A DNA stretch of 64,000 nt from Patescibacteria group bacterium (GCA_038065415.1 JBBTRA010000005.1:8079-72078); one strand, 5' to 3'. Positions 2,203-64,000 are shown, counted from the stretch's first letter. Made by a program: numbers and translations. Notes: a model not told the origin generated them from the sequence alone.

Positions 2203-2214
2203 GATATTACTTTT

Positions 2215-3195: not shown

Positions 3196-3224
3196 CGATA
3201 CCAGTAAGTATATCCAGAAATAGC

Positions 3225-3773: not shown

Positions 3774-3811
3774 CGTGAATAGTCCATGATCAAGAGAGAA
3801 TAACCAAGTAG

Positions 3812-4324: not shown

Positions 4325-4394
4325 CCCTTGATTGTGTGGCAAACTTGTGCGCGAGATATGCACTGAGGATACTCATGCTATATAATGAGAAGCA

Positions 4395-6386
4395 ATGAAA
4401 TCGAAAATCTTGCTCACCAGCTCTTTTCTTGCAGTATTCTGCGCTCTCGCTCTACCGTTCTCAGCGAAGGCAGCCATAACTGTAGGCAATGTATCGAGTT
4501 CGGGGGATCATTTTGGAGCATCATCGAGAACATGGGCCCATACTCACGCGGCCGGGTCTGATGGTGTGCTTATTGTGACATGTTCGACTTTTGGTACTGG
4601 AGGGGCGATGACCGCGACATTCAACGGAGAATCCATGACAGAGATTGGTCAGGCGCGCATAGGATCGCAGGAAGGAGTCATTGTATTCGTGCTGTTCAAT
4701 CCGTCAGTGACGACTGCGAACATCGTTTTCACTATACCTGATGGGGGTGACGGGGTTTGTGCGGGGCTGTCGGCATATGGTGTTTCCAACTCTGTCGATG
4801 CGTCTAATATCACGACGATAGGTAGCGCGGTCTACCCGATGACAGTTTCAGCATCGGCCTCGTCGCCGAGCAGTCTCGTTGTATCCATCTTCCAGTCAGT
4901 TGTATCTCCCAACGTGAGCGTACCAGGGTCTCAAACGGAGTTCGGTCTCGGGTGTGGTAATGATGGTAACAACTACTGCTTAAGCTCATATTCGTTGTCT
5001 TCTAGCGCAGGGACTCAGACTCATACATATAACAATGGTGCGGCGAGTGCTGACACGGGCGCTATTGGCATGATAATTCTCAAGGAGAGCGGTCAGTCAA
5101 CGCTACCGCCTCCATACGCTTCTTCAACGAGTTTCTTCATTACACATAGGATGCTGAATATTGCCGGCGGTAATCCTGCCAACTCTTTCAGTAGCTCGAC
5201 TACCTTCAGGCTTTTGGGTGCGGGAGGACAGACCGCTATCGGATCATCGACATCATCGACATTCGGTATCGAGAGCGGTTTTTTGAGGAACCTCTACAAA
5301 GGACCTGCGCCAATTTATACCCAGATGCACTATCATTGGCGCAATGATGATGGGTCCGAGACTACCGCCACTTCGAAGACTAGTGGTTCACAGGATGCTG
5401 TACTCAGTACACTCGATGAATCTACGGGTGTGCGACTCCGTCTACTGATAAGCAACGAAGGAGGGACTCGATTGGCATATGCACAACAGCAACTTCGACT
5501 CGAGTACGGTTTGAAGTCGACGACGTGCGCGGCGATATCATCATGGACTGACGTCGGGGGAGTTGGTGGGGATTGGGATATGTTCAGCTCCGCAAATCTC
5601 ACCGAAGGAGGAAATACAACCAACATAGCTGTGGCCACGGGGGGTGTCGCAAATGAGAATGCCACATTCGTGGCTTCCAATGGCGGCATCCGAGACACTA
5701 CGAGCCAAACCTCGTCTGTGCCGGTATCTAGTGATTCCTATATCGAGCTTGAATATTCGATTCAGGCACTTACCGCGGCGACCGATAATGGCACCTATTG
5801 TTTCCGGGTCACCAATGCGGGAAGTGCGACCAACTATGCCTATCGGGTATACCCTGAAGCGACGATATCTTCACCTCTATCACTTACATTTGTTGTAGAT
5901 GGAGCATCTCAAGCATTTTCAGCGGTAACTCCGGGCACGCTTGCCGCGACCTCGAGCATACTGACGGTCAAGACGACAAATCCAACCGGATTCATAGCTA
6001 CGGTGGAAAGATCCGATGCGACCGGCACAATGTCTTCAGGTGCATTCTATATCCCTGATAAGACGGCATGGGTTCCTGGTGTGGCGACGACGACGCCAGG
6101 TAATGCCACTGCATCAACGACTCAACCGCTAACTTTGCAGTTTCGTGTCCGACAAACGGGGACTGATGTACCGAATTACGCTTCTTCATGGTGGGGGACA
6201 GCAGATACCACAGCGAGCGCTCTCTTCGCTGGGTTCCCCTCAACAGCAAGCACAATAGTTAACAGGTCGACCCCGGCGGCCGCCACAACTACATCGTATG
6301 TGCTCTACAACTTGAATGTTCCAGTCACTCAGCAAACAGGGACATATTCTGGTGACATCATCTACACAGTGACTGCAAATCCATAA
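4395..6386 (+). CDS. Secreted Ser/Thr/Gly-rich surface protein with a C-terminal WxL-like/SCPU-like beta domain
   Basis: Clear signal peptide MKSKILLTSSFLAVFCALALPFSAKA. Low-complexity S/T/G-rich body. The C-terminal ~150 aa ('AWVPGVATTTPGNA...SWWGTADTTASALFAGF...TGTYSGDIIYTVTANP') is paralogous to the C-terminus of the next ORF. Confidence 0.6.
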   Translation: MKSKILLTSSFLAVFCALALPFSAKAAITVGNVSSSGDHFGASSRTWAHTHAAGSDGVLIVTCSTFGTGGAMTATFNGESMTEIGQARIGSQEGVIVFVLFNPSVTTANIVFTIPDGGDGVCAGLSAYGVSNSVDASNITTIGSAVYPMTVSASASSPSSLVVSIFQSVVSPNVSVPGSQTEFGLGCGNDGNNYCLSSYSLSSSAGTQTHTYNNGAASADTGAIGMIILKESGQSTLPPPYASSTSFFITHRMLNIAGGNPANSFSSSTTFRLLGAGGQTAIGSSTSSTFGIESGFLRNLYKGPAPIYTQMHYHWRNDDGSETTATSKTSGSQDAVLSTLDESTGVRLRLLISNEGGTRLAYAQQQLRLEYGLKSTTCAAISSWTDVGGVGGDWDMFSSANLTEGGNTTNIAVATGGVANENATFVASNGGIRDTTSQTSSVPVSSDSYIELEYSIQALTAATDNGTYCFRVTNAGSATNYAYRVYPEATISSPLSLTFVVDGASQAFSAVTPGTLAATSSILTVKTTNPTGFIATVERSDATGTMSSGAFYIPDKTAWVPGVATTTPGNATASTTQPLTLQFRVRQTGTDVPNYASSWWGTADTTASALFAGFPSTASTIVNRSTPAAATTTSYVLYNLNVPVTQQTGTYSGDIIYTVTANP

Positions 6387-15392: not shown

Positions 15393-15501
15393 ATGTCGAT
15401 CCTTTGGTTGTGCGTTGTGCCTGCGTTTGCTTGTTTTATACTCTTTTTTGGGGTATTCTGCAAGGTACGCCGTTTCGGGCTTTTTTACATATATAGATAT
15501 T

Positions 15502-15570
15502 GCGGGATCGTCTAATGGTAGGACACAGCTCTCTGAAAGCTGGTATCTTGGTTCGAGTCCAAGTCCCGCA
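15502..15570 (+). tRNA. tRNA-Gln (anticodon CTG)
   Basis: Cloverleaf folded by hand. Acceptor GCGGGAT pairs with GTCCCGC, with discriminator A. D-arm TCT/GGA. Anticodon stem CAGCT/AGCTG with loop CTCTGAA, giving anticodon CUG. T-arm CTTGG-TTCGAGT-CCAAG. No CCA is encoded. Confidence 0.8.
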
Positions 15571-15993
15571 GCACGTAGACAAAGTTCGAACATGAACTAG
15601 GCATGCCCACATGCTGCAGTCACTCAGAATCGAATCTATTTAGATACTTTTCTGGTCTTTATCCTCTCATTCATTCTCATCATTTTGGCTATGTACGTCA
15701 CCTTGCGGTATATCGCTCCAAGCCCTTTCATCATGGCTTCTATTTGGCTCATGATCTCTATTGGAGATGCGTCGCTGGGAATGTAAGACATCGTTTGTGT
15801 TGTTTACCCGCTCGCAGTTCGACTAGCTCTGCGAGCACAGCTCGTGCGGTGATATGGGCTGTGCGGGAGATAGTGTATTCTGTAGAAGAGGGGGATGGTA
15901 GACGGGTAGATTTGCCGGGAGTGGTAAGTTCACGAGTCTATGTACTTTCAGGAAAATAGGGTATAGAATCATCACTATTCACCAACCTCTAAA

Positions 15994-50552: not shown

Positions 50553-51071
50553 TTAAAAGGCCAGCCGCTCTTCGAGACGTTCTCGGTAGAGCTTCCGGAG
50601 TTCTTCCGGTGTGATGGTTTCTGGCGAGAGTCGCCATGTGAGCTTCGGGAACAGGGAGGGCTCTTCGGCCGCCTGCTGATCGATGGTGAGCATGATGCTA
50701 CATCCGCCGATGCTGAGTTCGAATACGTATCCGTTGACATGGTGGCGCAGCTCCTTGCGGAAATGCGTCTTCATTTTGCAGAACCAGTCGTTCACGATGA
50801 ACGTGGTTTCTGAGACTTTGGATTTGACCATCTCGGCCGCTTTGATGAGCGCCTCGACGATAACCTGTTCCAGCTTCTGGTTTTTCAACTTGTGAGGCAA
50901 GTTGTTGCCCAGTGTGCAATCTACGAGCGGTCGTTGCGGGACCGCCGACAGTGCTTTTTTAGTCTTCATACGATATACGATCTTCTTGTGTTTTGTGTGT
51001 TCTGTGTTTTCTGCAGTACGACGGATACGAATATCCTGAAGGAGTTTACCACTGTATATTTGAGGTGTCAA
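50553..51071 (-). CDS. Hypothetical protein
   Basis: ORF. The probable start is the internal ATG (MKTKKALSAV…). No motif recognised. Confidence 0.35.
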   Translation of the reverse strand: MTPQIYSGKLLQDIRIRRTAENTEHTKHKKIVYRMKTKKALSAVPQRPLVDCTLGNNLPHKLKNQKLEQVIVEALIKAAEMVKSKVSETTFIVNDWFCKMKTHFRKELRHHVNGYVFELSIGGCSIMLTIDQQAAEEPSLFPKLTWRLSPETITPEELRKLYRERLEERLAF

Positions 51072-51143
51072 TCATTTGAGATGATTCTGATGAGTATAAA
51101 AAAGCCCCGGATAATCTCCGGGGTGTAAGGGTCGAATACATGG

Positions 51144-51782
51144 TCACGCAGCTCTTCGCATGGACTCTCGCGGCTGAACATCGGGGACCGATGGGCCGCG
51201 CGCCTGGGCGAATTTGATCGGAGAACGGCGGAGGAGGGTGCCGAGGCAGAAGTCTGCGAGCGGCAATACCACGTTGAAGTTCTTCGTCATATAGCGGTGA
51301 TGGAGCAAATGATGACCGTTGATCATCCGGAATACTTGGTACCGCTCGATCAGACGCTGTTTGGGTGCGCGCGGCAGATGCATGCACCAATGCGTGTATT
51401 CATAGGTCGCATAATAGACCGAGAAGGCGCCGAAGATGCCGAACACTGCGGCGGTGGCTGACCCTAATGGTATGAGCCACGAACCGTGGATGAGGTTGAT
51501 CGCGGTGATCGGGATGATCGCCCATAGCAGGGTATTGATGAGGATGAGCACGGGGCCATTCCACCAAGCCATGGGTATGGTCCACTTGTCCTCCTCTTGG
51601 ATGAGGTGGTATGTGTGGTCAGCCTTGAAGGTCTGATGATGAACGACGGCGTGTGCCTTGAAGGCATAGTCGAATTTCCCGAGGGGCCGGTGCATGACGT
51701 ATCGATGCAGGACCCACTCGAAGAAAGACGCTATGCAGATGCCCACGCAAAACGTGAGCCCGAAGATGAGTATCGGATGCAT
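51144..51782 (-). CDS. Fatty-acid hydroxylase superfamily membrane protein (desaturase / hydroxylase-like)
   Basis: Four TM helices. Histidine boxes 'HAVVHHQ', 'HWCMH' and 'HHLLHHRY'. Confidence 0.65.
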   Translation of the reverse strand: MHPILIFGLTFCVGICIASFFEWVLHRYVMHRPLGKFDYAFKAHAVVHHQTFKADHTYHLIQEEDKWTIPMAWWNGPVLILINTLLWAIIPITAINLIHGSWLIPLGSATAAVFGIFGAFSVYYATYEYTHWCMHLPRAPKQRLIERYQVFRMINGHHLLHHRYMTKNFNVVLPLADFCLGTLLRRSPIKFAQARGPSVPDVQPRESMRRAA

Positions 51783-51842
51783 ATGTTCCTTATGTGTTGA
51801 GTTTTGAAATGACCAAATTCAGGCATAAGTATAGCATGGGGT

Positions 51843-51950
51843 CCCCAGAGGTGTGCGCATGTATTCTGCAATACATCGTTGTGTCGGTACACGAAACTTT
51901 AGGCAACCGTTCTGCGATGTATTGCAGAATACATGCGCACACCTCTGGGG
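51843..51950. repeat. Perfect 36-bp inverted repeat with a 36-nt spacer, in the divergent promoter region between the desaturase and DEAD-box helicase genes
   Basis: Arm 1 at 51843-51878 is CCCCAGAGGTGTGCGCATGTATTCTGCAATACATCG. Arm 2 at 51915-51950 is its exact reverse complement. The two mirror-image ORFs in the track (51794-51991 plus, 51790-51987 minus) are artefacts of the palindrome. Confidence 0.9.
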
Positions 51951-52055
51951 ATCGTGTATTTTGTAGAATATTGACTTTTTCCACCAAGTAGTTTATAGTA
52001 TATACCTAATAGATTTCTCATTGTTTGCCTCTGTATCGAATATATAGGCCTATCG

Positions 52056-53462
52056 GTGGGAGTAAGCCCACAGGGCATATATCATATGTATAACAAGCAT
52101 TCTAGCGGTGCGGGCCATAGTGGCTCGAACCGATCGTTTAGTCATAATAAGCCAGCCGGGCATAGTTCACGCCCAGGAAGTCATTCAGCGCGTCCGGCAA
52201 GTTCTGGCGGTTATCAGGGTCACAATCCTCGTAGCGCCGCGAGCCGCTTCGGCGGTTCTCATGGTCACTCGGGATCTCGCGGTCCGAGCCGCTTCGGTGG
52301 CAATCGTGGCGGGGGTAACCGCGGAGGTGGTTCTCGTGGCGGTAGGGGCGGAGGATTTTCGAAATATATCGACATCAGCAAGTTCGTCAATAAGGCTGTC
52401 ATTACCGAGACGGTCGACAATTTCGTGCCTGATCATGCGTTCGTTGATTTTCACATCGAGGCGCGTCTCAAGGCGAACATTGTCACCAAGGGATATATCA
52501 CCCCAACTCCGATCCAGGACAAGGCCATTCCGCATGTCCTTCGCAACGTAGATCTCGTCGGTATCGCTAACACGGGTACCGGTAAGACTGCAGCATTCCT
52601 CATTCCGCTCATCAACAAGATTCTCCTCAATCCTAAGGAGAAGATCCTCGTCGTCGTTCCTACACGCGAGCTCGCTCAACAGATCGAGGAGGAGCTCAAG
52701 GGGTTCACGAAGAACCTTCCGATCTGGTCTGTCTGTTGTGTCGGAGGTGCGAGCATCGTACCCCAACTCAAGGGTCTCTCACGACAGAATCAGTTCGTCA
52801 TCGGTACACCAGGACGTCTGCGCGATCTCATCGAACGCGGTCGTATCCGTCTTGCCGAGTACAACACGGTTGTTCTCGATGAGGCTGATCGTATGCTTGA
52901 TATGGGATTCATTACTGACATCAAGTTCATGATCGCCGGTATGCCCAAGGTTCGTCAGACACTCTTCTTCTCAGCGACCATGTCGAAGGAGATCGAGGCA
53001 CTCATCGGCCAGTTCCTCACCGATCCAGTCAAGATATCCGTGAAGACTGCTGATACTGCAGCATCTGTAGATCAGGACATTATCCGTGTTCCACCAGGAG
53101 CGAACAAGCTCGACATCCTCGTCGATCATCTCAATCAGCCTGGCTTCACCAAGGTTATTATCTTCGGAAAAACCAAGCATGGTGTGCAGAGGCTCGCTGA
53201 AGATCTCGTCAAACGCAAGATCATGTCAGAGGCTATCCATGGCAACAAGAGCCAGGGCCAGCGCATGCGTGCACTCCGTGCGTTCAAGGAACACTCAGTC
53301 AAAGTACTCGTAGCGACCGATGTGGCCGCTCGCGGTCTCGATATCTCCGGCGTCACGCACGTCATCAACTTTGATATTCCTGCTACCTACGAGGACTACG
53401 TCCATCGTATCGGTCGTACAGGCCGTGCCGGCAAGAAGGGGAAGGCGCTTACGTTCGTGTAA
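52056..53462 (+). CDS. DEAD-box ATP-dependent RNA helicase with Gly/Arg-rich (RGG) N-terminal extension
   Basis: Q-motif region 'GYITPTPIQDKAIP'. Motif I 'ANTGTGKTAAF'. 'VLDEADRMLD' (DEAD). 'FSAT' (SAT). 'HRIGRTGRAG' (motif VI). The N-terminal ~100 aa are low-complexity GGSRGG/RGG. Confidence 0.85.
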   Translation: MGVSPQGIYHMYNKHSSGAGHSGSNRSFSHNKPAGHSSRPGSHSARPASSGGYQGHNPRSAASRFGGSHGHSGSRGPSRFGGNRGGGNRGGGSRGGRGGGFSKYIDISKFVNKAVITETVDNFVPDHAFVDFHIEARLKANIVTKGYITPTPIQDKAIPHVLRNVDLVGIANTGTGKTAAFLIPLINKILLNPKEKILVVVPTRELAQQIEEELKGFTKNLPIWSVCCVGGASIVPQLKGLSRQNQFVIGTPGRLRDLIERGRIRLAEYNTVVLDEADRMLDMGFITDIKFMIAGMPKVRQTLFFSATMSKEIEALIGQFLTDPVKISVKTADTAASVDQDIIRVPPGANKLDILVDHLNQPGFTKVIIFGKTKHGVQRLAEDLVKRKIMSEAIHGNKSQGQRMRALRAFKEHSVKVLVATDVAARGLDISGVTHVINFDIPATYEDYVHRIGRTGRAGKKGKALTFV

Positions 53463-53463
53463 A

Positions 53464-53520
53464 TCCTAAACTCTAAGTTCTAAATCCTGAACTCTATATG
53501 AGGGTTTAGGATTTTTTGCT
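53464..53520 (+). terminator. Rho-independent terminator after the DEAD-box helicase gene
   Basis: ATCCTAAAC … GTTTAGGAT stem followed by TTTTTT. Confidence 0.5.
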
Positions 53521-53568
53521 ATACTGCCCCCACATTACCAAGGGTCGTTTTAACATACATACAAACAT

Positions 53569-53955
53569 ATGGAAATCGCATTCATCATCGGCCGTATCAT
53601 TTTCGGGGGATATTTCCTCAAGAATGCCTACAACCATATCTTCAAGTCGGCCCATCTTGTTGGATATGCTCAGTCCAAGGGGGTCAAATCACCCAAGATA
53701 GCCATCATCGGTTCAGGCATCCTGCTCGCGTTCGGCGGCCTGTCGATGATCCTTGGCGTTTGGACTATCTGGGGAGCGGTGGCACTCATCGCTTTCCTTA
53801 TCCCTGTGTCACTCAAGATGCATGACTTCTGGAAGATTCAGGATCCTATGGCTCGCATGGGCGAGAGGATCTCATTCGAGAAGAACATGGCTTTGGCAGC
53901 AGCGGCCCTCATAACCATGGCCATCTCAACTCCGTGGATATACTCCGCATTCTAG
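53569..53955 (+). CDS. DoxX-family membrane protein (second copy)
   Basis: Four TM helices. 'IIGRIIFGGYFLKNAYNH' is typical of DoxX. Confidence 0.5.
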   Translation: MEIAFIIGRIIFGGYFLKNAYNHIFKSAHLVGYAQSKGVKSPKIAIIGSGILLAFGGLSMILGVWTIWGAVALIAFLIPVSLKMHDFWKIQDPMARMGERISFEKNMALAAAALITMAISTPWIYSAF

Positions 53956-54020
53956 TTGATTCGGATCGAATATAAAAAAGCGTCTCCTTGCCGGTTGGCG
54001 GAAGGGGACGCTTTTGCGCG

Positions 54021-54467
54021 TTAGGAGGCGATCTCGACTGGTGCTGGCTGAGTCGGTATCTTGCCGCTCGCACCAAATTCCAAGACGCCGGTCAGGTAAT
54101 CCATGATGACCTCGCAGGCTTCGTTGAATGTTTCGATATCGAGATTTCGGCAGAGCGCGTGAGATAGGTCGACGCCGATACAACGCGCACTCACGAAGTC
54201 ATCGACGTCGTCGTCACCAGCCTTGATTTTCATGGGATACTTTTGGCATGCCATGACGAGCATCGATATAAGTACGAACTTGTAATACCGGAGACGGAAC
54301 TCGGGGTCATGGTCATGACGGGCCAAGAGGTCCATCGTGTACCATGAAGGGTCCCATGCGGAGCCCTGGCCTTTGATGCGGGCGAGGTACTCTTTCTGTT
54401 TTACCTCGATTTGATCAGAGAGTTCCAGGGCTTTTGCCACAGGGAACTCGATGGTTGATATTTCCAT
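54021..54467 (-). CDS. Hypothetical protein
   Basis: Start set at ATG 54467, preceded by AGGAGA 5 nt upstream. The track ORF extends to 54587 without a ribosome-binding site. Confidence 0.4.
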   Translation of the reverse strand: MEISTIEFPVAKALELSDQIEVKQKEYLARIKGQGSAWDPSWYTMDLLARHDHDPEFRLRYYKFVLISMLVMACQKYPMKIKAGDDDVDDFVSARCIGVDLSHALCRNLDIETFNEACEVIMDYLTGVLEFGASGKIPTQPAPVEIAS

Positions 54468-54533
54468 AGATCTCCTGTGGTTGTTTCTGGCGATAATACT
54501 ATGCTCATTTGGGATGAAGTCAAGGAATAAAAA

Positions 54534-56180
54534 ATGCGGTATACTTCTTCCATGATCGATCTCAAAAAGCTCAAATCCATCATCCATGGTGATGTTGATG
54601 TTTCAGATGAAGCTCTCCACGCAGCGAGTCATGACGCGAGTGTATTCGAAATCAAGCCTGAAGTAGTTGTCAGGCCCAAGAATGTAGAGGATCTGAAGTC
54701 TCTGGTGAGATTTGCCACTGAGCATCAGGGAGTGTATCTTGCGGCGCGCTCGGGCGGTACCGATATGTCCGGTGGTCCACTCACAACATCAGTCGTTGTC
54801 GATTTTTTGAAATATTTTGATCAGATCAAGAAAATTGGTGAAGGGTACGCAATCACTCAGCCAGGTGTCTACTATCGAGATTTTGACAAAGCTACACTCG
54901 AAAGTGGGTATATCATGCCTAGTTACCCAGCTTCCCGCGAGATATGCACGGTGGGTGGTATGGTGGCGAACAATTCCGGCGGCGAAAAAACACTTACCTA
55001 TGGCAAGACAGAAAGATATGTACGTCGTCTTAGAATGGTCTGTGCTGATGGTAACGAATATGAATTCAAGTCACTTTCAAAAAGTGAGTTAGAGGCAAAA
55101 AAGAAATTGTTAGGATTTGAAGGGGATCTGTATCGTAGGATGAGCGACCTTATTTCAGATAACAAAGATATCATTGAGAAAGCTCGCCCTATCGTTTCCA
55201 AGAATTCCTGCGGCTATTATTTATGGAATGTAAGAGATGTTTCCGGCGAAACCTTTGATCTGACCAAGCTCATCGTTGGTTCACAGGGGACCCTTGGCTT
55301 GATAACTGAGATCGAATTTGGCCTCGTGAAGCCAAAGAAACATGCGCGCCTACTCATCGTATTCCTCAAAGATCTGAAACTTCTTGGTGAGACAGCGACA
55401 CACATCCTGAAATTTAAACCCGAGAGCTTCGAGTCGTATGATGATCATACGTTCAAGATTGCCATCAAATTCTTGCCACAACTCATCAGACAGATGGGAG
55501 GAAACATCTTCAAGCTCGGCCTCGGATTCATTCCTGAAATGTTTGCCGTATTGACGGGCGGTGTTCCCAAGCTGGTTCTCATGGCTGAGTTTACCGCCGA
55601 TACTCCAGAAGAGGCGGTGAAGATGGCTGAAGAAGCCAAGGATTCTCTGAAGGGGTTGCATGAGAAATCTCGCGTCACAGAAACCGCTGAGGATGCCCAC
55701 AAGTATTGGGTCATACGCCGTGAGAGTTTCAACATGCTCCGCCATCATGTGAAGGAACTCCGTACGGCACCATTCATCGACGATTTTGCGGTGCTTCCCG
55801 AGAAGTTGCCCGAGTTTCTTCCGCGTCTGTACTCTATTCTTGATGAATACAAGCTGACGTATACCATCGCAGGACATGTGGGTGATGGTAATTTCCACAT
55901 CATTCCGCTGATGAATCTCCACGATCAACATTCACATGATGTCATAAAGGAGCTCTCGGTTAGAGTGTATGAACTCGTTCACGAGTTCAAGGGGACCATC
56001 ACGGCTGAGCACAACGATGGACTCATCCGCACGCCATTCGTCAAGATGCAATTTGGCGAGGAGGTTTACAAACTTTTTGAGCAGACCAAGAAGATCTGGG
56101 ATCCGCAGGGGATATTCAATCCAGGCAAGAAAGTAGGAACGACCTGGGAACAGGCGGTGGGGAAGATAGCGCACAAATAA
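54534..56180 (+). CDS. FAD-linked oxidase (GlcD / D-lactate dehydrogenase-like)
   Basis: The FAD_binding_4 N-terminal pattern 'VVVRPKNVEDLKSLVRFATEHQGVYLAARSGGTDMSGG' plus a C-terminal FAD-oxidase_C-like half. Confidence 0.7.
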   Translation: MRYTSSMIDLKKLKSIIHGDVDVSDEALHAASHDASVFEIKPEVVVRPKNVEDLKSLVRFATEHQGVYLAARSGGTDMSGGPLTTSVVVDFLKYFDQIKKIGEGYAITQPGVYYRDFDKATLESGYIMPSYPASREICTVGGMVANNSGGEKTLTYGKTERYVRRLRMVCADGNEYEFKSLSKSELEAKKKLLGFEGDLYRRMSDLISDNKDIIEKARPIVSKNSCGYYLWNVRDVSGETFDLTKLIVGSQGTLGLITEIEFGLVKPKKHARLLIVFLKDLKLLGETATHILKFKPESFESYDDHTFKIAIKFLPQLIRQMGGNIFKLGLGFIPEMFAVLTGGVPKLVLMAEFTADTPEEAVKMAEEAKDSLKGLHEKSRVTETAEDAHKYWVIRRESFNMLRHHVKELRTAPFIDDFAVLPEKLPEFLPRLYSILDEYKLTYTIAGHVGDGNFHIIPLMNLHDQHSHDVIKELSVRVYELVHEFKGTITAEHNDGLIRTPFVKMQFGEEVYKLFEQTKKIWDPQGIFNPGKKVGTTWEQAVGKIAHK

Positions 56181-56189
56181 TCTGCTTGT

Positions 56190-57002
56190 ATGACCGCTGA
56201 TTCCCGCATCTCCGTCAAGAATCTCACCAAGAAATATGGGAAGCTCGCTGCTGTAGACGATGTTTCTTTTGATGTTCCCGCAGGAAGCACCTTTGCTTTT
56301 CTTGGACCAAACGGTGCAGGTAAAACTACGACCATCAAGATGCTCACGACACTGGTTCCTCCGACATCTGGCACTATCATGGTGAACGGATTTGATCCCG
56401 CTATAGATTCTCATGGTGTGCGCCGCTCATTCGGCATCGTCTTTCAGGATCCTTCACTCGACGACGAACTCACTGCCTATGAGAATATGTTCTTCCATGC
56501 GGGTCTCTATGGTGTGCCGCGTGTCGAGACACCGGGAAGGATTAAGGAGATGCTCGAATTCGTCGAGCTCTGGGATCGTAAAGACAGTCAGACCAAGACT
56601 TTTTCGGGAGGAATGAAACGCCGCCTCGAGATTGCTCGTGGACTGCTTCATACGCCGAGCGTTCTGTTTCTCGATGAGCCGACCGTAGGTCTCGATCCAC
56701 AAACGCGCAACCATATCTGGTCCTATATCAAGAAGCTCAATACTGAGCGCGGTCTCACGGTTTTCTTCACCACCCACTATATGGAGGAGGTCGAGAAGAC
56801 AGCTGATCGTGTGGCAATCATCGATCATGGCAAGCTCGTAGCTATAGACACTGTTGAAGGGATCATCACTCAGGCGGGCACAACTTCTCTTGAAGAAGCC
56901 TTCATCAAGCTCACTGGACACACTATCCGAAGCGATGAGGCCAGCTCGGCTGAGAATTTCCGCCAAATGAGTAAGGTGTGGCGTGGTGCATCTCGACGAT
57001 AA
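56190..57002 (+). CDS. ABC transporter ATP-binding protein (ABC-2/DrrA type)
   Basis: Walker A 'GPNGAGKTTT'. Signature 'FSGGMKRRLEIA'. Walker B 'LFLDEPTVGLD'. Confidence 0.85.
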   Translation: MTADSRISVKNLTKKYGKLAAVDDVSFDVPAGSTFAFLGPNGAGKTTTIKMLTTLVPPTSGTIMVNGFDPAIDSHGVRRSFGIVFQDPSLDDELTAYENMFFHAGLYGVPRVETPGRIKEMLEFVELWDRKDSQTKTFSGGMKRRLEIARGLLHTPSVLFLDEPTVGLDPQTRNHIWSYIKKLNTERGLTVFFTTHYMEEVEKTADRVAIIDHGKLVAIDTVEGIITQAGTTSLEEAFIKLTGHTIRSDEASSAENFRQMSKVWRGASRR

Positions 57003-57006
57003 TTTT

Positions 57007-57765
57007 ATGAAATCGAATACTTTCTATATCATATACATCCTCTGGCTTCGTCAGATTAAACGCTATTTTAGGTCGAAGTCGCGCATTATTGGCTCTCTCG
57101 GTCAGCCCATCCTTTTCTTGGTCGCCCTCGGCTTCGGTCTTGGTCCGGTGTATGCCAAAGCTGGCGGAGGAGACTATATACAATTCCTCGCACCGGGCGT
57201 CATCGCCATGGGCATATTATTCACTTCCATATTTTCTGGTATCGAGATCATCTGGGACCGTCAGTTTGGCTTCCTCAAAGAAACACTTGTGGCTCCGGTC
57301 TCGCGACTCTCAATCATGTTAGGTAGAACGCTCGGTGGCGCGACCGTCGCGTGTCTCCAAGGTCTTGCGGTCTTGGCCATATCGTTCATTGCCGGTTTTC
57401 GCCCCGAACTGGCAATGCTTCCACTGGCCGTCGCTTTCATGATCGGTATCGCACTCGTTTTCACAGCGCTTGGTACGGCTATTGCCTCGGTCCTCGAAGA
57501 TATGCAAGGCTTCCAGCTCATCATGAATTTCGTGGTCATGCCGATTTTCTTCCTGTCAGGAGCACTCTTTCCCCTGGAGAGTTTGCCGGCAGCTATCAAA
57601 TTCCTCGTCAACATCAATCCGCTCAGCTATGGCGTCGACGGCCTCCGCTATGCACTTCTCGGTGCGTCTCACTTTAATTTGGGTACAGACATCGCTGTCT
57701 TATCCGGGTTCATCGTCGCTTTTGTTGGGGTAGGTGCATGGCTGTTCTCAAGGATCAAGGCGTAA
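57007..57765 (+). CDS. ABC-2 type transporter permease
   Basis: Six TM helices. It directly follows the ATPase gene. Start at ATG 57007, inside track ORF 56983-57765. Confidence 0.7.
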   Translation: MKSNTFYIIYILWLRQIKRYFRSKSRIIGSLGQPILFLVALGFGLGPVYAKAGGGDYIQFLAPGVIAMGILFTSIFSGIEIIWDRQFGFLKETLVAPVSRLSIMLGRTLGGATVACLQGLAVLAISFIAGFRPELAMLPLAVAFMIGIALVFTALGTAIASVLEDMQGFQLIMNFVVMPIFFLSGALFPLESLPAAIKFLVNINPLSYGVDGLRYALLGASHFNLGTDIAVLSGFIVAFVGVGAWLFSRIKA

Positions 57766-57787
57766 TCGAGGCGGTTAGCGTGCCGCA

Positions 57788-58258
57788 TTGAAAGCAGATT
57801 TTTTTAGTGGTAGCATGACTTCTAGTATGAGATGCGCATATTGTGAACTACCAGAAATAAAAGCTCGCGAAATCACCGGTAATGATCTGGCGTGGGTTTT
57901 TCCGACCAATATCCCGATTGTTCCCGGTCATATCCTGATTGCGCCCCGTCGGTGTGTGGCGAAGTACGAAGATCTGACGAGAGATGAAAAAGACGCGATT
58001 GAGTCATTGAGGGTATCTCTGGTGAAAGCACTCACGAAGCTCTTTGGTGCCGAAGGATTCAACTTTGCCTGGAATGATGGCAAACTCGCCGGACAATCGG
58101 TACCGCACTTCCATCTGCACGTACTTCCACGGAAGATGGGAGATGCGGGGATCTGGCAGTATGAACCGCGCCAATTTCTCTATCGCCCCGGAGAGCGAGA
58201 AGCTACCCCTGAAGCAGAACTTCTTGGGGTTGCCGAAAGTATTCGTGCTGCATTGTAA
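57788..58258 (+). CDS. HIT-family (histidine triad) protein
   Basis: 'VPHFHLHVLPR' (H-x-H-x-H-x-x). N-terminal 'CAYC' zinc-binding motif. The alternative start is ATG 57815. Confidence 0.7.
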   Translation: MKADFFSGSMTSSMRCAYCELPEIKAREITGNDLAWVFPTNIPIVPGHILIAPRRCVAKYEDLTRDEKDAIESLRVSLVKALTKLFGAEGFNFAWNDGKLAGQSVPHFHLHVLPRKMGDAGIWQYEPRQFLYRPGEREATPEAELLGVAESIRAAL

Positions 58259-58304
58259 CATCTGAGCCGCTCTCTGAGCGGATTTTTAATGGTAAAATTG
58301 TTCT

Positions 58305-58814
58305 ATGAAAAAAGTTACCGTCAATGATCGAATGCAGAAAGGATATGTCTACGAACTGACTGAGCCAGTCGGTCAGAACTTCCATCCTGACTTCAAGCCG
58401 CACCTTACGCCACAGGAGATGCTGGAGGTAGGTGTCTTCGGGGGGATATATATGCGTGACTGTCGGGATGAATTTCCAGTGGAATGGTTCGAGAAGGCGA
58501 AATTAGCCCCAGGGGGTAGTATGAAGCATGATCCGAAGATTAATTTCTTCGGCGTGAATGCGAGTCAGTCTCTCTCGGTCTGGAAAGCGAAAGGATGGAT
58601 ACATCCTGACGATCCGCGAGGGTGGTTTCAGTGGTATTGCAGGTATCATATGGGCCGCCGGCATGTTGATGACAAGAGGCAAATCAAGCGTTGGAAGAAT
58701 ATGGTCCGTCATGTCGCACAGATCGTCAACAAGTGCCGGCCTCGGGATTATTCCTGCAATACGCGACAGCGTCAGGCACTTCTCCACTGGGCATACGACA
58801 GTCGCAAGCTCTGA
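58305..58814 (+). CDS. Conserved hypothetical protein (Trp/Arg-rich)
   Basis: ORF containing 'GWIHPDDPRGWFQWYCRYHMGRR'. No family confidently recognised. Confidence 0.4.
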   Translation: MKKVTVNDRMQKGYVYELTEPVGQNFHPDFKPHLTPQEMLEVGVFGGIYMRDCRDEFPVEWFEKAKLAPGGSMKHDPKINFFGVNASQSLSVWKAKGWIHPDDPRGWFQWYCRYHMGRRHVDDKRQIKRWKNMVRHVAQIVNKCRPRDYSCNTRQRQALLHWAYDSRKL

Positions 58815-58843
58815 TATGGTATAATCCAACCATTGAAAAATAT

Positions 58844-59197
58844 ATGACTCCCGACCAATACGAACTCATCCTCATATTCATCTCCGTCATCGTCGGTGTC
58901 ATCACTGCCGCCTACTTCTATATATCAGCGGAATCATTCCCGCGCTTGCGCCTTTTCCAGAGCTCGCTCAAATATATTGCTCTCGGCATGTTCGTCATTG
59001 CGAGTGGCGTTCTTCTGGCAGCATTCATCTCATATGAAGCTAAGCAAGGGTTTGATCTCTTCTTGTACGGGATTCCGTTGCAAGCATTCTTCTATGTTCT
59101 CTATATTTTCGGTTCCATCTCTATTCTCATCGGTGCGCGCAAATTCACTGCACGACCCAAGGAGTCGGTTGTCGACGTATCTCTGCAGGCGCACTAA
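58844..59197 (+). CDS. Small membrane protein (117 aa)
   Basis: Three hydrophobic helices. Extended −10 'TGgTATAAT' at 58817-58825 upstream. The 5' part of track ORF 58691-59197 overlaps the previous gene. Confidence 0.4.
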   Translation: MTPDQYELILIFISVIVGVITAAYFYISAESFPRLRLFQSSLKYIALGMFVIASGVLLAAFISYEAKQGFDLFLYGIPLQAFFYVLYIFGSISILIGARKFTARPKESVVDVSLQAH

Positions 59198-59201
59198 GGT
59201 A

Positions 59202-59885
59202 TTACCACGGATACTTTTCTCCTTTGAACCAGAATTGTCCTGTTTCAGGATTTGAGACGGCGAGCTCATAGATGTGTCCGGCAGCTTCTTCGGGTGTCAT
59301 TGGCGCCTCATCGCCGCCCATATCCGTCTTGACCCAGCCCGGATGAACTGATGAGACGGTGAGGTTCTTGGCATCATTCGCCATGCGCGTGGCAAGGGTT
59401 CTCGTGTACATATTGATAGCTGCCTTTGATATCTTGTATGCGGGATAGTGGTAGGGGTAATGCGAAGTGCGGAGGTCTGCAGCACCTTCGAGAGAACCTG
59501 CAGATGAGGATATCTGCAGAATGTGCCCACCTGTATTCATGAGTGGGATGATGCGTTCCGTGAAATCAGTGGTCCCGATGAGGTTCACATCCAGTGTTTG
59601 TCTTAGTTTCTCGACAATAACGCTGGTGTCGTCGTTGTCTATCAGGATGCCTGCATTGTTGATGAGGATATCGAGCTTTGTTCCTGTCGCGGCTATTGAC
59701 CGTACGCATGATTCTATCGAATCTGTTTTGGAGAGATCCAGTGGATATGATGTTAGTTGATCATGAGTGTAGTCGAGCACCTCTCTGAGATATGTACCAA
59801 TAACCGCATGCCCTTCGGTCAGGAATTTTTGAGCTAAGGCCTTGCCGATACCGCGCCCGCTGCCGGTGATGAGGATTGTTTTCAT
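59202..59885 (-). CDS. SDR-family short-chain dehydrogenase/reductase
   Basis: 'ILITGSGRGIGKA' (TGxxxGxG). 'NNAG'. Catalytic 'YPAYKISKAA' (YxxxK). Confidence 0.8.
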   Translation of the reverse strand: MKTILITGSGRGIGKALAQKFLTEGHAVIGTYLREVLDYTHDQLTSYPLDLSKTDSIESCVRSIAATGTKLDILINNAGILIDNDDTSVIVEKLRQTLDVNLIGTTDFTERIIPLMNTGGHILQISSSAGSLEGAADLRTSHYPYHYPAYKISKAAINMYTRTLATRMANDAKNLTVSSVHPGWVKTDMGGDEAPMTPEEAAGHIYELAVSNPETGQFWFKGEKYPW

Positions 59886-59923
59886 GCTTGAATTATAGGG
59901 GATTGTCAGTATAATAGAAAGAC

Positions 59924-60092
59924 AATCTCATATATCCAGAGTGCAGGGAGGGAACTAGCCCCATGATCTGCCAGCAACCCTTTCATATCGGCCCGTTCAC
60001 GGAATCTGATGTGGAAGAAGGTGCTCCATCTAGCCCTTGCGGGAAAGATAATATACTCAATTATCAACCTCTTTCTCCTCGGGAAAGAGGTT
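59924..60092 (+). ncRNA. SAM-I (S-box) riboswitch with Shine-Dalgarno-sequestering hairpin
   Basis: P1 'CTCATATATC…'. 'AGAGTGCAGGGAGGGAACTAGCCCCATGATCTGCCAGCAACC' matches the S-box core (AGAGaGGcaGAGGGAcUGGCCCgAuGAagCCCGGCAACC). 'GGTGCTCCATCTAGCCCTTGCGGGAAAGAT' matches the P4/P1-3' region. A 10-bp hairpin AACCTCTTTC/GAAAGAGGTT at 60066-60092 pairs the GAAAGAGG ribosome-binding site 13 nt before ATG 60104. Confidence 0.65.
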
Positions 60093-60103
60093 GTGCTTAT
60101 ATT

Positions 60104-61225
60104 ATGAAAGGAAATGAACCAGTCGCGCCTATACTCGTGCGCAGTAAGACATACCGTTGGCCGGGTATTGATGCGGATCCACCCTACAAGTATTCACGAG
60201 GCGCGAATCCGACGAGGACTATTCTCGAAGAAGCGCTTATTAAAAATGAGGGTTTCTCAGGAAAGCTTCATGCTGCAACATTCGCTTCGGGAATAGCTGC
60301 TGAATCAGCATTCTTCCTATCGCTTTCACCGGGTGATAGGGTGTTGCTGTGTGATGAGATATATGGTGGCACATATCGTTTGTTCGATAAGGTACTCAAG
60401 CGGTTCGGTATCGAATGTGATTTTGCGGATTTCAATGATGTCGATCAGGTGCGCGCGAAAATCACGCCGAAGACCAAATACTTTTTTGTGGAGCCAATGA
60501 GTAATCCATCCCTTGTAGTTACTGATATGCAGAAAGTCTCGTATCTGTCACAGGAGACAGGTATTCCATTCGTAGTTGACGGCACATTCTGCCCAGCTCC
60601 TACATTCAATGCTTTTGAATACGGTGCCGAAGCGGTCATCTATAGTCTGAGCAAATATTTTTCAGGTCACAACGATGCGCTTGGCGGAGCAGTGTTAACG
60701 AAGAATGAAGTATTGCAGACGCATCTCAGGTTGATGCAGACAACACTCGGTGCAGTTCTTTCGCCCGACGAATGTTACCGAATCATCCAAGGGATGAAGT
60801 CACTACCGATCAGGTGGAGACATACCTCTGAAAGCGCACTTCAAGTCGCAGGATGGCTCAATGTGCACCCGAGCATAAAAAAAGTTTCATACCCAGATTT
60901 ACCTTCACATCCTCACCATGAGATTGCTCGTGCGCAGTTCCCGCGAGGTTGTGGAGCGGTGATCGCTTTTGAGCTAGTGGAAACTGAGAAATCAAAAATC
61001 TCAGCTTTTGTTGACAGGATTATTTCGACGGGATGTGTGGTATTCGGTGAAAGCCTTGCAAGTCCGGAGACGATATTGGCGTATCCGCGTATCATGAGCC
61101 ATAGGAGTCTTTCTGATGAACAACGCGCGGCGCTTGGTATCAGCGATGGGTCGTTCAGGTTGTCGGTTGGATTTGATGAATCAGAAAAAGTGATCGGGAG
61201 TTTCAAACAAGCTTTGGAAACCTGA
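60104..61225 (+). CDS. Cys/Met-metabolism PLP-dependent enzyme (cystathionine gamma-synthase/lyase or O-acyl-homoserine sulfhydrylase family)
   Basis: PLP-lysine motif 'YSLSKYFSGHNDALGG'. Fold-type I overall pattern. Preceded by a SAM riboswitch. Start at ATG 60104, inside track ORF 59963-61225. Confidence 0.8.
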   Translation: MKGNEPVAPILVRSKTYRWPGIDADPPYKYSRGANPTRTILEEALIKNEGFSGKLHAATFASGIAAESAFFLSLSPGDRVLLCDEIYGGTYRLFDKVLKRFGIECDFADFNDVDQVRAKITPKTKYFFVEPMSNPSLVVTDMQKVSYLSQETGIPFVVDGTFCPAPTFNAFEYGAEAVIYSLSKYFSGHNDALGGAVLTKNEVLQTHLRLMQTTLGAVLSPDECYRIIQGMKSLPIRWRHTSESALQVAGWLNVHPSIKKVSYPDLPSHPHHEIARAQFPRGCGAVIAFELVETEKSKISAFVDRIISTGCVVFGESLASPETILAYPRIMSHRSLSDEQRAALGISDGSFRLSVGFDESEKVIGSFKQALET

Positions 61226-61237
61226 TATACTATAGGC

Positions 61238-61744
61238 ATGTCGCAGACTCGTCTCGCCAAAGCATCGTATCTCCGTAGCTTCATCTTCGGGGTTGAAGAT
61301 AGCCTCGTCTCTACTGTTGGCCTCCTATCGGGTATTGCCATGGCTGGCGTCGCGCGTGGAACAATATTGACGACGGGTATTATCCTCATACTCGTCGAAG
61401 CGTTCTCAATGGCTGCAGGAAGTTTCCTCTCCGAAACATCGGTAGAGGAGTATCAGGGTATTTCACCCAACAGGGTGCCACTCATTGATGGGAGTATCAT
61501 GTTCATGTCATATGTTCTAGCAGGACTTGTCCCTCTTGTTCCGTATATGTATTTTGAGACTGACATAGCGTTTGAGATATCTATCGGACTCGCGCTTCTT
61601 GCGCTGTTGGTGCTCGGGATGTTCGGGGGTATGTATTCCAATTCTGCGAAGAAAAATGTTTTCCGACGAGGCATGAGGATGCTTCTCATTGGTGGAGTCG
61701 CTATCGTGGTCGGTGTTGTTGCAGGGAAGATTACAGGATTCTAA
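61238..61744 (+). CDS. VIT-family (CCC1-like) membrane protein
   Basis: 'FGVEDSLVSTVGLLSGIA' matches the VIT1/DUF125 signature. Five TM helices. Confidence 0.65.
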   Translation: MSQTRLAKASYLRSFIFGVEDSLVSTVGLLSGIAMAGVARGTILTTGIILILVEAFSMAAGSFLSETSVEEYQGISPNRVPLIDGSIMFMSYVLAGLVPLVPYMYFETDIAFEISIGLALLALLVLGMFGGMYSNSAKKNVFRRGMRMLLIGGVAIVVGVVAGKITGF

Positions 61745-61746
61745 TA

Positions 61747-62985
61747 CTACTCGTATCGGAGTGCCTCGATAGGATTGAGCTTTGATGCTCGCCGAGCAGG
61801 GTAATAGCCAAATACGATACCGATGAGTGCGGATACCCCGAAGGCAAGGGCAATCGATGTCGGGGATATTTGTGTCTGGAGGATACCGAGCGTGGTCACT
61901 ATGTACGCAGCAGACCAGCCGAGGATCACGCCGATAGTTCCACCGATCAATGTCAGCGCGACTGCCTCTACGAGGAATTGTGTATTGATGTCATGACGTT
62001 TTGCGCCGATAGCTTTGCGTAGACCGATTTCCTTGGTTCTTTCGGTCACAGTAGTGAGCATCATGTTCATGATACCGATACCTCCGACCAGGAGGGATAT
62101 CCCTGCAACTGCTGCAAGGAGTACGGTGAATGTACTCGTGACGCTTGAAGCTGCGGAGACGATATCGGCCTGGTTCAGCACATTGAAATCAGCATCTGCA
62201 GGGGTGTCGATGCGATGTCGTGCCAAGAGCAGTGCAGTGATATCGGTCTGCACCTGGGTCATGGCATCAGCCTCGCTTGCAGATATACTGAGGGATGTCA
62301 CATAGCTCGAATCTCCGATGAGGAACAGTTGTGCTGTTGAGAGAGGTATATAAATAGTATCGTCTTGGTTACCGAATCCTCCGCTACCTTTTGATGCGGC
62401 AAGACCAATAACTTTGAACTCCATGCCGTTGATGCGGATACTCTGACCGACGACTTGTGAGTCTCCGTCAACTTGTGAACCGAAAAGATCATCTCGTACG
62501 GTTGGACCGATAACAGCAACCTTTGACTTGCTGGCGACATCTTGATCTGAGATGAATGACCCTTCTTCTATAGATACATTATGCACGGTTGTATAGTCGG
62601 GTCGCGAACCAATAACAGATGTATTGGTGTTGGTGCCTTTGGCTGTGACTTGGTAGCGACCACTTACTTCAGGAGATATAGCACTTATATTCGCAACTTC
62701 AGTCTCGATCGCCTCAACATCCTTCATAGTGAGAGTCTTCGCAGCTCCTCGACCCGTTGATGCTCCGTAGCCAAAACTTCGAGTTGCACCAGGAGATACA
62801 ATGATGAGATTTGATCCGATAGACTGGATACTTGTCTGGATAGCGCTCTGAGCACCTTGGCCGATGGCTACCATGGTGATCACCGAACTGATACCGATGA
62901 TGATGCCCAGCATGGTGAGTGCCGTACGAACTTTATTCGCGGTCAGCGCAGAGAATGTTTCATGAAGGATGTCATTGGTTGTCAT
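61747..62985 (-). CDS. MacB/FtsX-type ABC transporter permease
   Basis: N-terminal TM helix, a large periplasmic domain, and a C-terminal three-TM FtsX domain. Its start is 2 nt after the stop of the ATPase gene (no overlap), giving a macA-macB-like order. Confidence 0.8.
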   Translation of the reverse strand: MTTNDILHETFSALTANKVRTALTMLGIIIGISSVITMVAIGQGAQSAIQTSIQSIGSNLIIVSPGATRSFGYGASTGRGAAKTLTMKDVEAIETEVANISAISPEVSGRYQVTAKGTNTNTSVIGSRPDYTTVHNVSIEEGSFISDQDVASKSKVAVIGPTVRDDLFGSQVDGDSQVVGQSIRINGMEFKVIGLAASKGSGGFGNQDDTIYIPLSTAQLFLIGDSSYVTSLSISASEADAMTQVQTDITALLLARHRIDTPADADFNVLNQADIVSAASSVTSTFTVLLAAVAGISLLVGGIGIMNMMLTTVTERTKEIGLRKAIGAKRHDINTQFLVEAVALTLIGGTIGVILGWSAAYIVTTLGILQTQISPTSIALAFGVSALIGIVFGYYPARRASKLNPIEALRYE

Positions 62986-62986
62986 A

Positions 62987-63691
62987 TCAGTTTTTGATGA
63001 TGCGCTTGGCGTGCTTCTTGCTGTCTTCTACTATCTCACCATCTTTTATGTGTATGATGCGATCAGCATGTTCAGCTACGTCTTTTTCATGAGTGATGAG
63101 TACGATGGTCCGGCCGAGTTCCTTGTTGAGTCTCTGGAATGTTCCGAGTACTATATTTCCTGTTTGCGAATCGAGGTTTCCAGTCGGTTCGTCGGCGAGG
63201 ATGAGAGTCGGATCGTTCACGAGTGCTCGTGCAATGGCGACGCGTTGTATCTGACCGCCGGAAAGTTGATTGGATTTGTGGTTGAATCGATCCTCGGTCA
63301 GTCCGGCGCTGGCGAGCGCCCGGTATGCGCGTGCTTCACGTTCATGTGGAGCTACTCCTGCATATATAAGAGGCAGAGTGACATTGCGGAGCACGGTGGC
63401 GCGGGGCAGGAGATTGAATGCTTGGAAGACGAAGCCGATACGATCTCGTCTGATCTCGGCAAGCTCATCATCTGAGAGTTTGGAGACGTCATGACCGTCG
63501 AGTTTATAGTGTCCCGAAGTTGGAGTATCGAGGGCGCCAAGGATGTGCATGAGTGTTGATTTGCCCGATCCGGAAGGTCCCATGATAGCTACAAACTCTC
63601 CATCCTCTATGGTGAAAGATACCCCGCGCAGTGCGTGCGTGGCGTTGTCTCCGCTCATATAGGTTTTTGTTATATTCTTTACTTCGATCAT
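62987..63691 (-). CDS. ABC transporter ATP-binding protein (MacB/LolD type)
   Basis: Walker A 'GPSGSGKSTL'. Signature 'LSGGQIQRVAIA'. Walker B 'ILADEPTGNLD'. Confidence 0.85.
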   Translation of the reverse strand: MIEVKNITKTYMSGDNATHALRGVSFTIEDGEFVAIMGPSGSGKSTLMHILGALDTPTSGHYKLDGHDVSKLSDDELAEIRRDRIGFVFQAFNLLPRATVLRNVTLPLIYAGVAPHEREARAYRALASAGLTEDRFNHKSNQLSGGQIQRVAIARALVNDPTLILADEPTGNLDSQTGNIVLGTFQRLNKELGRTIVLITHEKDVAEHADRIIHIKDGEIVEDSKKHAKRIIKN

Positions 63692-63708
63692 GGGGATGGC
63701 GTATGAAG

Positions 63709-64000
63709 CTAACGGGTGATCATGCGTGTATTTCCGCCCGCTGCGCCTCCGCGATTTCCACCGATGCTGCTCAGGATATTCGGTGTCGTTGCGGTGCTTG
63801 CACTGCCTGCCGCAATAGTGCGGGTTACGACTAGTTGTCCAATTTCGAGTCCACTCAAAATCTCTATGCCTGTATCGTCACTTTCGCCTATGGTCACTGT
63901 GACTTGGGTTGGCGGCGTCGCTGAGGTTATAGTCATCGACCGTCCTGTCATGGGAGTTCCATCAAATTGTCGGGTGCTACTCGAGATGGTTCCTGGTAGC
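63709..64000 (-). CDS. Efflux-system periplasmic adaptor (MacA/HlyD-family), C-terminal part; gene continues beyond the window
   Basis: The frame is open to the window edge, with no stop between 63952 and 64000. The C-terminal beta-domain is 'VTVTIGESDDTGIEILSGLEIGQLVV'. It heads the macAB-like operon. Confidence 0.55.
   Translation of the reverse strand, partial: LPGTISSSTRQFDGTPMTGRSMTITSATPPTQVTVTIGESDDTGIEILSGLEIGQLVVTRTIAAGSASTATTPNILSSIGGNRGGAAGGNTRMITR

Follow-up and report, generated by a model that had tools for sequence, protein, structure and literature searches.

The aptamer, the gene and its start codon

The window, by which we mean the whole 64,000-nucleotide stretch of DNA that was analyzed, belongs to a groundwater metagenome scaffold of Patescibacteria (CPR). 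It encodes a Cys/Met-metabolism PLP-dependent enzyme, and a SAM-I aptamer on the same strand ends 49 nt upstream of this PF01053 gene. The leader and the gene have the following parts.

59888-59915, plus strand: predicted sigma-70-type promoter, with -35 TTGAAT at 59888-93, a 16-nt spacer and -10 TATAAT at 59910-15 (10/12 matches)
59930-60054, plus strand: SAM-I (S-box) aptamer, from the RF00162 covariance-model alignment
59930-36 with 60047-54, plus strand: P1, AUAUAUC with GAUAAUAU, 7 bp, A60050 bulged
59941 and 59943-46 with 59968-72, plus strand: outer P2, G59941 and GCAG with CUGCC
59950-52 with 59959-61, plus strand: inner P2, GGG with CCC
59955-58, plus strand: 5' half of the pseudoknot, CUAG, in the P2 loop
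59973-79 with 60020-25, plus strand: P3, AGCA-A-CC with GGUGCU, with a long insertion within P3
60030-33, plus strand: 3' half of the pseudoknot, CUAG, in J3/4
60034-36 with 60041-43, plus strand: P4, CCC with GGG, 3 bp, 4-nt loop UUGC
60104-61225, plus strand: Cys/Met-metabolism PLP-dependent enzyme, 373 aa, PF01053

We scanned the whole 64-kb window against Rfam 15 at gathering thresholds, and two families matched, RF00162 (SAM riboswitch, S-box leader) and tRNA. The RF00162 match at 59930-60054 (+) covers the entire model (1-108 of 108) and scores 50.4 bits, above the gathering score of 44.4. Its E-value is 1.3e-8 for a search of 4227 families over both strands of the 64 kb. The earlier note had called this leader an S-box (SAM-I) riboswitch and had proposed the RF00162 score, set against the gathering threshold, as the check; the identification is borne out. 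The tRNA lies at 15501-15571 (+) and scores 60.3 bits; its anticodon loop, CUCUGAA, gives the anticodon CUG, and it is presumably tRNA-Gln.

In the window, all four helices, P1 to P4, form round a four-way junction, and the P2 loop forms the pseudoknot with J3/4. The pseudoknot, P3 and P4, for which the earlier note had named a covariance-model alignment as a further check, are all present in that alignment. By direct reading, the first core block, cCAGAGtGCAGGGAGGGAaCTAGCCCcATGAtctGCCAGCAACC, is at 59937-59979 and the second, GGTGCtCCatctagcccttGCGGGAAAGAT, is at 60020-60049, and all the core blocks quoted earlier are found there. The P1 assignment of the earlier note was slightly off: the P1 3' strand is at 60047-54, and CTC 59927-29 lies outside P1. 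The window shares with the RF00162 S-box the P1-P4 junction, J1/2 AGAG, the P2 internal loop GA...AUGA, GCAACC with GGUGC, J4/1 AAAGAU and the pseudoknot. Judged by its sequence, the element is a genuine SAM-I riboswitch and an ordinary member of RF00162. Well-known examples of the family are the yitJ and metI leaders of Bacillus subtilis and the metF aptamer of Thermoanaerobacter tengcongensis. Unlike the classic S-box, the element belongs to a Patescibacteria MAG and not to a Firmicute, its P4 is very short, and its P3 carries a long insertion.

The product of ATG 60104 matches PF01053 from its residue 7 onward (profile positions 18-381, E 9e-96). All 373 of its residues are identical (100%) to those of a public protein, 'PLP-dependent transferase [Patescibacteria group bacterium]', and 8 of 8 close orthologues (62-71% identity) begin no more than 6 residues from its methionine. 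Orthologues and public record agree in pointing to ATG 60104 as the true start. ATG 59963 is in frame with ATG 60104 and opens a frame of 59963-61225; it lies inside the aptamer, where it belongs to the conserved AUGA on the P2 3' side (CCCAUGA). We rejected the 420-aa ORF from this ATG. Its 47 extra residues have no Pfam match and are absent from all orthologues, the 373-aa public protein contradicts it, and ATG 59963 marks only the mechanical longest ORF. The earlier note was right on both points, that ATG 59963 is inside the aptamer and that the start should be moved to 60104, and the annotation gains a riboswitch feature and a corrected gene start.

The same open frame, 59963-61225, would suit a reading in which the aptamer-like sequence has decayed or arose by chance and regulates nothing, and the protein starts at ATG 59963. 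We consider this highly improbable. The model match is full length and above the gathering score, the helices are intact and covary in the relatives described below, and the 47 residues have neither a Pfam family nor an orthologue counterpart, in keeping with the 373 aa of the public record.

The enzyme appears to be of the CGS/CBL/CGL family. The PLP-enzyme target of the earlier note stands, but its term 'trans-sulfuration' is a guess at the family level only, because no NCBIfam equivalog cut-off was reached (the best models, those of cystathionine beta-lyase and gamma-synthase, scored at about half the cut-off) and PDB matches were equally good for gamma-synthase, beta-lyase and gamma-lyase. 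An assignment to CGS, CBL, CGL or MGL was tried, and these two comparisons discriminate none of them. If SAM shuts the enzyme off, we suggest that it works towards methionine/SAM supply.

The riboswitch probably controls this one gene, which appears monocistronic, because the next gene (61238, VIT1 family) has its own TATACT box at 61226-61231, 6 nt before its ATG. Two methionine sulfoxide reductase genes, msrA and msrB, also lie near the PLP gene, as does a gene for a class-II aminoacyl-tRNA synthetase (PF00152, of the aspS/asnS/lysS type). This neighborhood occupies 17629-20450 of L010, which is the window contig past the window end, and 2134-4656 of the related locus L005. Its occurrence in both contigs is a conserved methionine-related synteny.

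The promoter predicted at 59888-59915 would place the transcript start at about 59922, which gives a 5' UTR of about 180 nt. Boxes resembling -10 also occur in 7 related leaders, 6-7 nt from the conserved 5' motif described below. At 59883-59915, divergent promoters overlap: a minus-strand SDR gene has TATAAT at 59892-59897 (the reverse complement of ATTATA) before its ATG 59885, and this -10 box (59892-97) overlaps the -35 TTGAAT at 59888-93.

SAM-I leaders of the orthologous genes

We fetched the DNA around the orthologues and scanned it with Rfam, working with 15 distinct orthologue loci including the window. Twelve further leaders have a SAM-I match in the same place and on the same strand before the orthologue, at 34.7-62.8 bits, and the aptamer and the gene are associated in 13 of the 15 distinct loci. 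The matches, with coordinates for those that are below the gathering score and structurally intact, are as follows.

L035: 62.8 bits
L004: 58.2 bits
L031 (Taylorbacteria): 54.4 bits
L005: 52.8 bits
L033 (Pacebacteria): 44.4 bits; L034 is a duplicate of L033
L006, 2843-2942: 43.0 bits, below the gathering score
L007, 2855-2952: 43.0 bits, below the gathering score
L008, 2840-2945: 42.1 bits, below the gathering score
L036, 338-439: 41.8 bits, below the gathering score
L003 (Saccharibacteria), 2767-2876: 39.8 bits, below the gathering score
L009, 2839-2943: 37.8 bits, below the gathering score
L001 (Saccharibacteria), 2772-2875: 34.7 bits, below the gathering score

The low scores of L006-L009 and L036 accompany a J3/4 that is shortened to C plus the pseudoknot 4-mer. 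The Rfam scan found no SAM-I aptamer upstream of L002 (JBAXMY010000024.1, labelled 'archaeon') or L011. The L002 and L011 homologues are 50-53% identical, and the upstream ORF of L011 nearly reaches the gene. A metagenome scan with the orthologue alignment returned L011 (53%) and a set of 29-37% homologues, L012-L030, several of them from the human gut; L012-L030 were of no use for the leader comparison. The genome scan gave three loci only, L002 among them.

In the alignment of the 13 leaders, 96.2% of the pair cells hold standard pairs, a share that falls to 31-44% if the partners are shifted against each other. Eight pairs have changed on both sides, a number that none of 500 shuffles equalled. 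The pseudoknot is an exact 4-nt complement in 13 of 13 leaders and appears as CUAG:CUAG, UUCG:CGAA and CUCA:UGAG. The SAM-I core nucleotides are invariant or nearly so across the alignment, and the leaders covary even though the encoded proteins are just 48-71% identical. Because the helices and the pseudoknot covary across 13 leaders, the comparison argues that the aptamer is a real, selected SAM-I element. Annotation at the gathering threshold would miss the relatives at 34.7-43 bits despite their intact, covarying structure.

The platform hairpin, its competitor and its tail

Between the aptamer and the gene, the leader contains a single stable hairpin, which follows the aptamer after a 10-nt linker. 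The parts of this expression platform are listed here.

60041-60048, plus strand: candidate anti-sequestor/anti-terminator strand GGGAAAGA, which spans the 3' side of P4, J4/1 and two nucleotides at the beginning of the P1 3' strand
60065-60093, plus strand: platform hairpin, 13 pairs (one G-U; 6 G-C), loop CUC at 60078-80
60065-77, plus strand: hairpin 5' arm CAACCUCUUUCUC, anti-SD-like, of which 60070-77 doubles as the partner in the anti-sequestor pairing
60081-93, plus strand: hairpin 3' arm GGGAAAGAGGUUG, which contains the SD-like sequence
60087-60091, plus strand: GAGGU, the Shine-Dalgarno (SD)-like core, within the 3' arm; the AUG follows after 12 nt
60094-60103, plus strand: tail UGCUUAUAUU, a decayed U-tract, still U-rich but with a longest U-run of 2

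The hairpin has a predicted energy of -17.5 to -18.2 kcal/mol and is found in 13 of 13 leaders. Its 3' arm includes GAAAGAGG (60084-60091); from the end of the aptamer to ATG 60104 there is no other SD-like string. The stem ends 10 nt before the AUG, within the roughly 15 nt expected of a translational platform, and the SD-to-AUG spacing of 12-13 nt is long. The downstream hairpin of the earlier note is therefore real and does hold the only SD-like sequence, but it has 13 pairs and is longer than the 10 bp given there.

An alternative helix of 8 bp can form between GGGAAAGA (G60041-A60048) and UCUUUCUC (U60070-C60077) in the hairpin 5' arm, with a predicted energy of -6.4 kcal/mol as a hairpin and -9.6 kcal/mol as a duplex. 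The earlier note had paired the 5' arm with the P1 3' strand. The alternative pairing exists, but GGGAAAGA carries just two P1 nucleotides, and the helix mainly breaks P4 and J4/1 and, of P1, only the base. We found an equivalent in 13 of 13 leaders, and it tracks sequence changes in L001, L003 and L031. In the Saccharibacteria, GGAAAGAUAU pairs with UAUCCUUCC and GCGGGAAAGAUAU with AUAUCCUUUCCCCG. Shuffle controls of the duplex, leader by leader, gave weak z-scores (-0.7 to -3.1), since pairing comes easily to any purine-rich strand set against a pyrimidine-rich one. The case for the competitor is built on its occurrence in 13 of 13 leaders and on the matching changes in L001, L003 and L031.

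We also considered a helix between AUAAUAUA (P1 3' strand, 60048-55) and UAUAUUAU (60098-105). The two are perfectly complementary, they pair in the minimum-energy folds, and the pairing covers the AU of the start codon. With P1 open, such a helix would mask the AUG. It is probably fortuitous; it consists of A-U pairs only, and just AUUAU is kept in L004 and L005.

The tail after the stem has 7 U in 13 nt, a longest T-run of 2 and a T-score of 1.78. The gene-end terminators in the window (n=7) have runs of 4-6 in 5 of 7 and T-scores of 2.4-4.8 in 6 of 7, and relatives with a distant AUG, L007 excepted, have tail T-scores of 3.0-4.7. A clear U-tract follows the homologous hairpin in 7 of the 12 relatives (L006, L008, L009, L036, L031, L033 and L035). 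In these leaders the tail is UUUUAUU or UUUUGUUUUU, and the AUG follows 23-52 nt on, after an A-rich region with no SD; their hairpins look like intrinsic terminators. The window resembles this terminator-type group (with L034, the duplicate of L033) in its aptamer, its gene, its hairpin (..CUCUUUC../..GAAAGAG..) and its GGGAAAGA competitor. It differs from the group in its broken U-tract and in its AUG 10 nt from the stem. L007 has a distant AUG (15 nt) and a poor U-tract. The closest relative, L004, has the layout of the window, with the tail UCAUAUU and an AUG 7 nt after the last G-C pair, and L005, L001 and L003 have a well-spaced SD within the 3' arm and an adjacent AUG.

These hairpins raise the main rival, transcription attenuation, in which 60065-60093 would be an intrinsic terminator and GGGAAAGA:UCUUUCUC an anti-terminator, and the SD in the 3' arm would matter for read-through transcripts only. 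A lenient consensus scan does list the hairpin as terminator-like (5 T in 8), its 13 bp and -17.5 kcal/mol are typical of terminators, and the homologous hairpins of the seven relatives named above have U-tracts with the AUG well downstream. A weak kinetic competitor, together with the poised energies of truncated transcripts described below, is also the usual design of a transcriptional riboswitch. However, the T-score of the tail UGCUUAUAUU is below those of 6 of the 7 gene-end terminators in the window and of all distant-AUG relatives except L007, and the stem base beside the tail is A-U rich. Termination would moreover fall within a few nucleotides of the start codon, or at it, and L004, L005, L001 and L003, all with good SD spacing, share the adjacent-AUG layout. 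We regard attenuation as the main output as possible but rather doubtful.

We surveyed the starts of 25 called genes, in window 50553-64000 and in L010. An SD-like 4-mer lies at -20 to -5 in 4 of the 25, and the PLP gene is among these four. A TATAAT-like hexamer lies exactly 6-7 nt before the start codon in 7 of 25, versus 0.8 expected per 4-nt bin. The few SDs and the TATAAT-like boxes 6-7 nt before the ATG suggest that many mRNAs of this Patescibacteria genome are leaderless. A literature search on leaderless mRNAs in Patescibacteria found nothing specific. An SD on a long structured leader is notable in a genome that rarely uses SDs. The SD-like look of the 3' arm is partly forced by its need to mimic GGGAAAGA of the aptamer.

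Folding, the 5' motif and the output of the switch

In full-leader folds, the predicted minimum is -64.4 kcal/mol. The energy is -55.0 kcal/mol with P1 and the hairpin forced, -53.9 kcal/mol with the competitor (anti-sequestor) forced, and -48.2 kcal/mol with the SD-to-AUG region forced open. P1 and the hairpin coexist in full-length folds, with or without ligand, and the 8-bp competitor (-6 to -10 kcal/mol) is far weaker than the hairpin (about -17.5 kcal/mol). According to these predictions, a purely thermodynamic translational switch is not supported, because the full-leader folds keep P1 and the hairpin together. The 'on' state would be only a co-transcriptional, metastable state and not one of equilibrium, because the hairpin is much stronger than the competitor and is compatible with P1. 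When the transcript is cut short of the 3' arm, the competitor state is within +1.5 to -3.3 kcal/mol of the aptamer state in 8 of 8 close leaders, and at +1.3 kcal/mol in the window. Such near-equal energies would make this a poised, co-transcriptional decision point.

The predicted 5' end of the transcript holds a further conserved element.

59922-59931, plus strand: conserved 5'-terminal motif ACAAUCUCAU, ACAAYCUCAU in the relatives, at the predicted +1

The motif is kept in 8 of 8 close leaders, 6-7 nt after a -10 box, and the spacer before it varies. In the relatives it is at 808-817 (L004), 332-341 (L005), 2832-2841 (L006), 2845-2854 (L007), 2830-2839 (L008), 2829-2838 (L009) and 328-337 (L036). 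The motif directly repeats the hairpin 5' arm (CAACCUC), and its complement is GAGGUUGU at 60087-94. In 8 of 8 leaders it ranks second, behind only the real 5' arm, as a partner of this 3'-arm segment (-7.4 to -12.7 kcal/mol), and in the forced 'on' fold it pairs with 60087-94. Possible roles are a second anti-terminator strand that captures the 3' arm, a start-site signal or a stability signal.

These pairings would fit a platform with three elements or two inputs, whose SD stays sequestered in the SAM-bound and the free state alike until some additional interaction frees it. That interaction could come from the 5'-terminal ACAAYCUCAU, a decoy or second partner over long range, or from a trans factor of the kind known for SAM-I_Xcc, the SAM-I riboswitch of Xanthomonas campestris. 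The conservation of the motif next to a spacer that is not conserved and its rank as the next-best partner of the 3' arm are in favor of this. So is the thermodynamic dominance of the hairpin in both states, as reported for SAM-I_Xcc (PMC7270179). However, we looked for covariation of the motif with the 3' arm across the leaders and found only C or U opposite G, which is no true covariation. The leaders of Saccharibacteria, Taylorbacteria and Pacebacteria lack the motif and show only an unspecific ACAA/A-rich sequence at the 5' end. If the motif paired with the SD, the SD would be hidden and not freed, and nothing in the sequence indicates tRNA binding. We think such a platform quite unlikely.

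We prefer, as having somewhat better than an even chance, a kinetic SAM OFF switch that acts mainly by occlusion of the ribosome-binding site (RBS), with residual termination possible. SAM binding, the direction of regulation and the dominant output are what we infer from the features above. When SAM is bound, P1, P4 and the pseudoknot would be locked, which would leave the pyrimidine-rich 60065-77 free to pair with 60081-93. The resulting 13-bp hairpin would bury GAGGU (60087-91) and end 10 nt before AUG 60104, within the 30S footprint, and initiation would be blocked. A hairpin within this footprint would inhibit initiation even without an SD. Without SAM, GGGAAAGA at 60041-48 would pair with UCUUUCUC at 60070-77 during transcription. 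This would delay the hairpin and leave the SD arm open as the RNA emerges. The choice would be a kinetic, co-transcriptional one, because the hairpin is far more stable than its competitor.

RBS occlusion is probably the main output because the U-tract is decayed and the AUG is beside the stem. Against it are the lenient terminator scan, which the hairpin passes, the U-rich tail, the long SD spacing, the rare use of SDs in this organism, the terminator-like hairpins of the seven relatives and the full-length folds. Other bacteria are known to terminate at weak U-tracts with the help of factors, and RBS occlusion and termination are not mutually exclusive. The earlier note had spoken of a textbook translational OFF-switch. 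A translational OFF switch is indeed the most likely output, but it is not established as the textbook form: the hairpin looks like a terminator to the scan, 7 of 12 relatives have a U-tract, and the 'on' fold would be metastable only, with a sequestor that outweighs its competitor and is compatible with P1.

The element is like the S-box in preceding a methionine/cysteine gene and in the logic of an OFF switch whose competitor helix draws on the aptamer's 3' side. It is unlike the classic S-box in that a single hairpin holds the SD, abuts the AUG and is followed by a decayed U-tract, and in that the competitor invades P4 and J4/1 more than P1. Translational SAM-I switches are already known, and what is new here is the host and not the kind. 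In SAM-I_Xcc, a met gene is controlled mainly at translation by an anti-SD hairpin (Tang et al. 2020; PMC7270179). That hairpin stays in place when SAM is absent; uncharged tRNA-fMet, which binds the anti-SD, opens it, and a separate anti-AUG strand also sequesters the AUG (PMC7270179). The window is similar in that folding predicts a hairpin that persists without SAM. It differs in that its sequence suggests neither an anti-AUG strand nor tRNA-fMet binding, the two platforms are not alignable, and the lineages are unrelated.

Our search for literature on natural riboswitches in Patescibacteria found no paper. The leader adds metabolite-sensing RNA regulation in a lineage of reduced genomes, which is of modest wider value. 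The platform hairpin may descend from the intrinsic terminator of the orthologous leaders, or share ancestry with it. A bolder idea, which we hold to be unlikely, is that the SAM-I leaders of this one CPR gene family switched their output from termination to RBS occlusion while keeping the hairpin, with the 5' ACAAYCUCAU as a third, long-range strand. If true, this would be a three-strand platform of a sort not described for SAM-I. The 13 leaders form a small natural series in which one hairpin is apparently a terminator in some members and an RBS sequestor in others, and the series can be used for studying how platforms change output.
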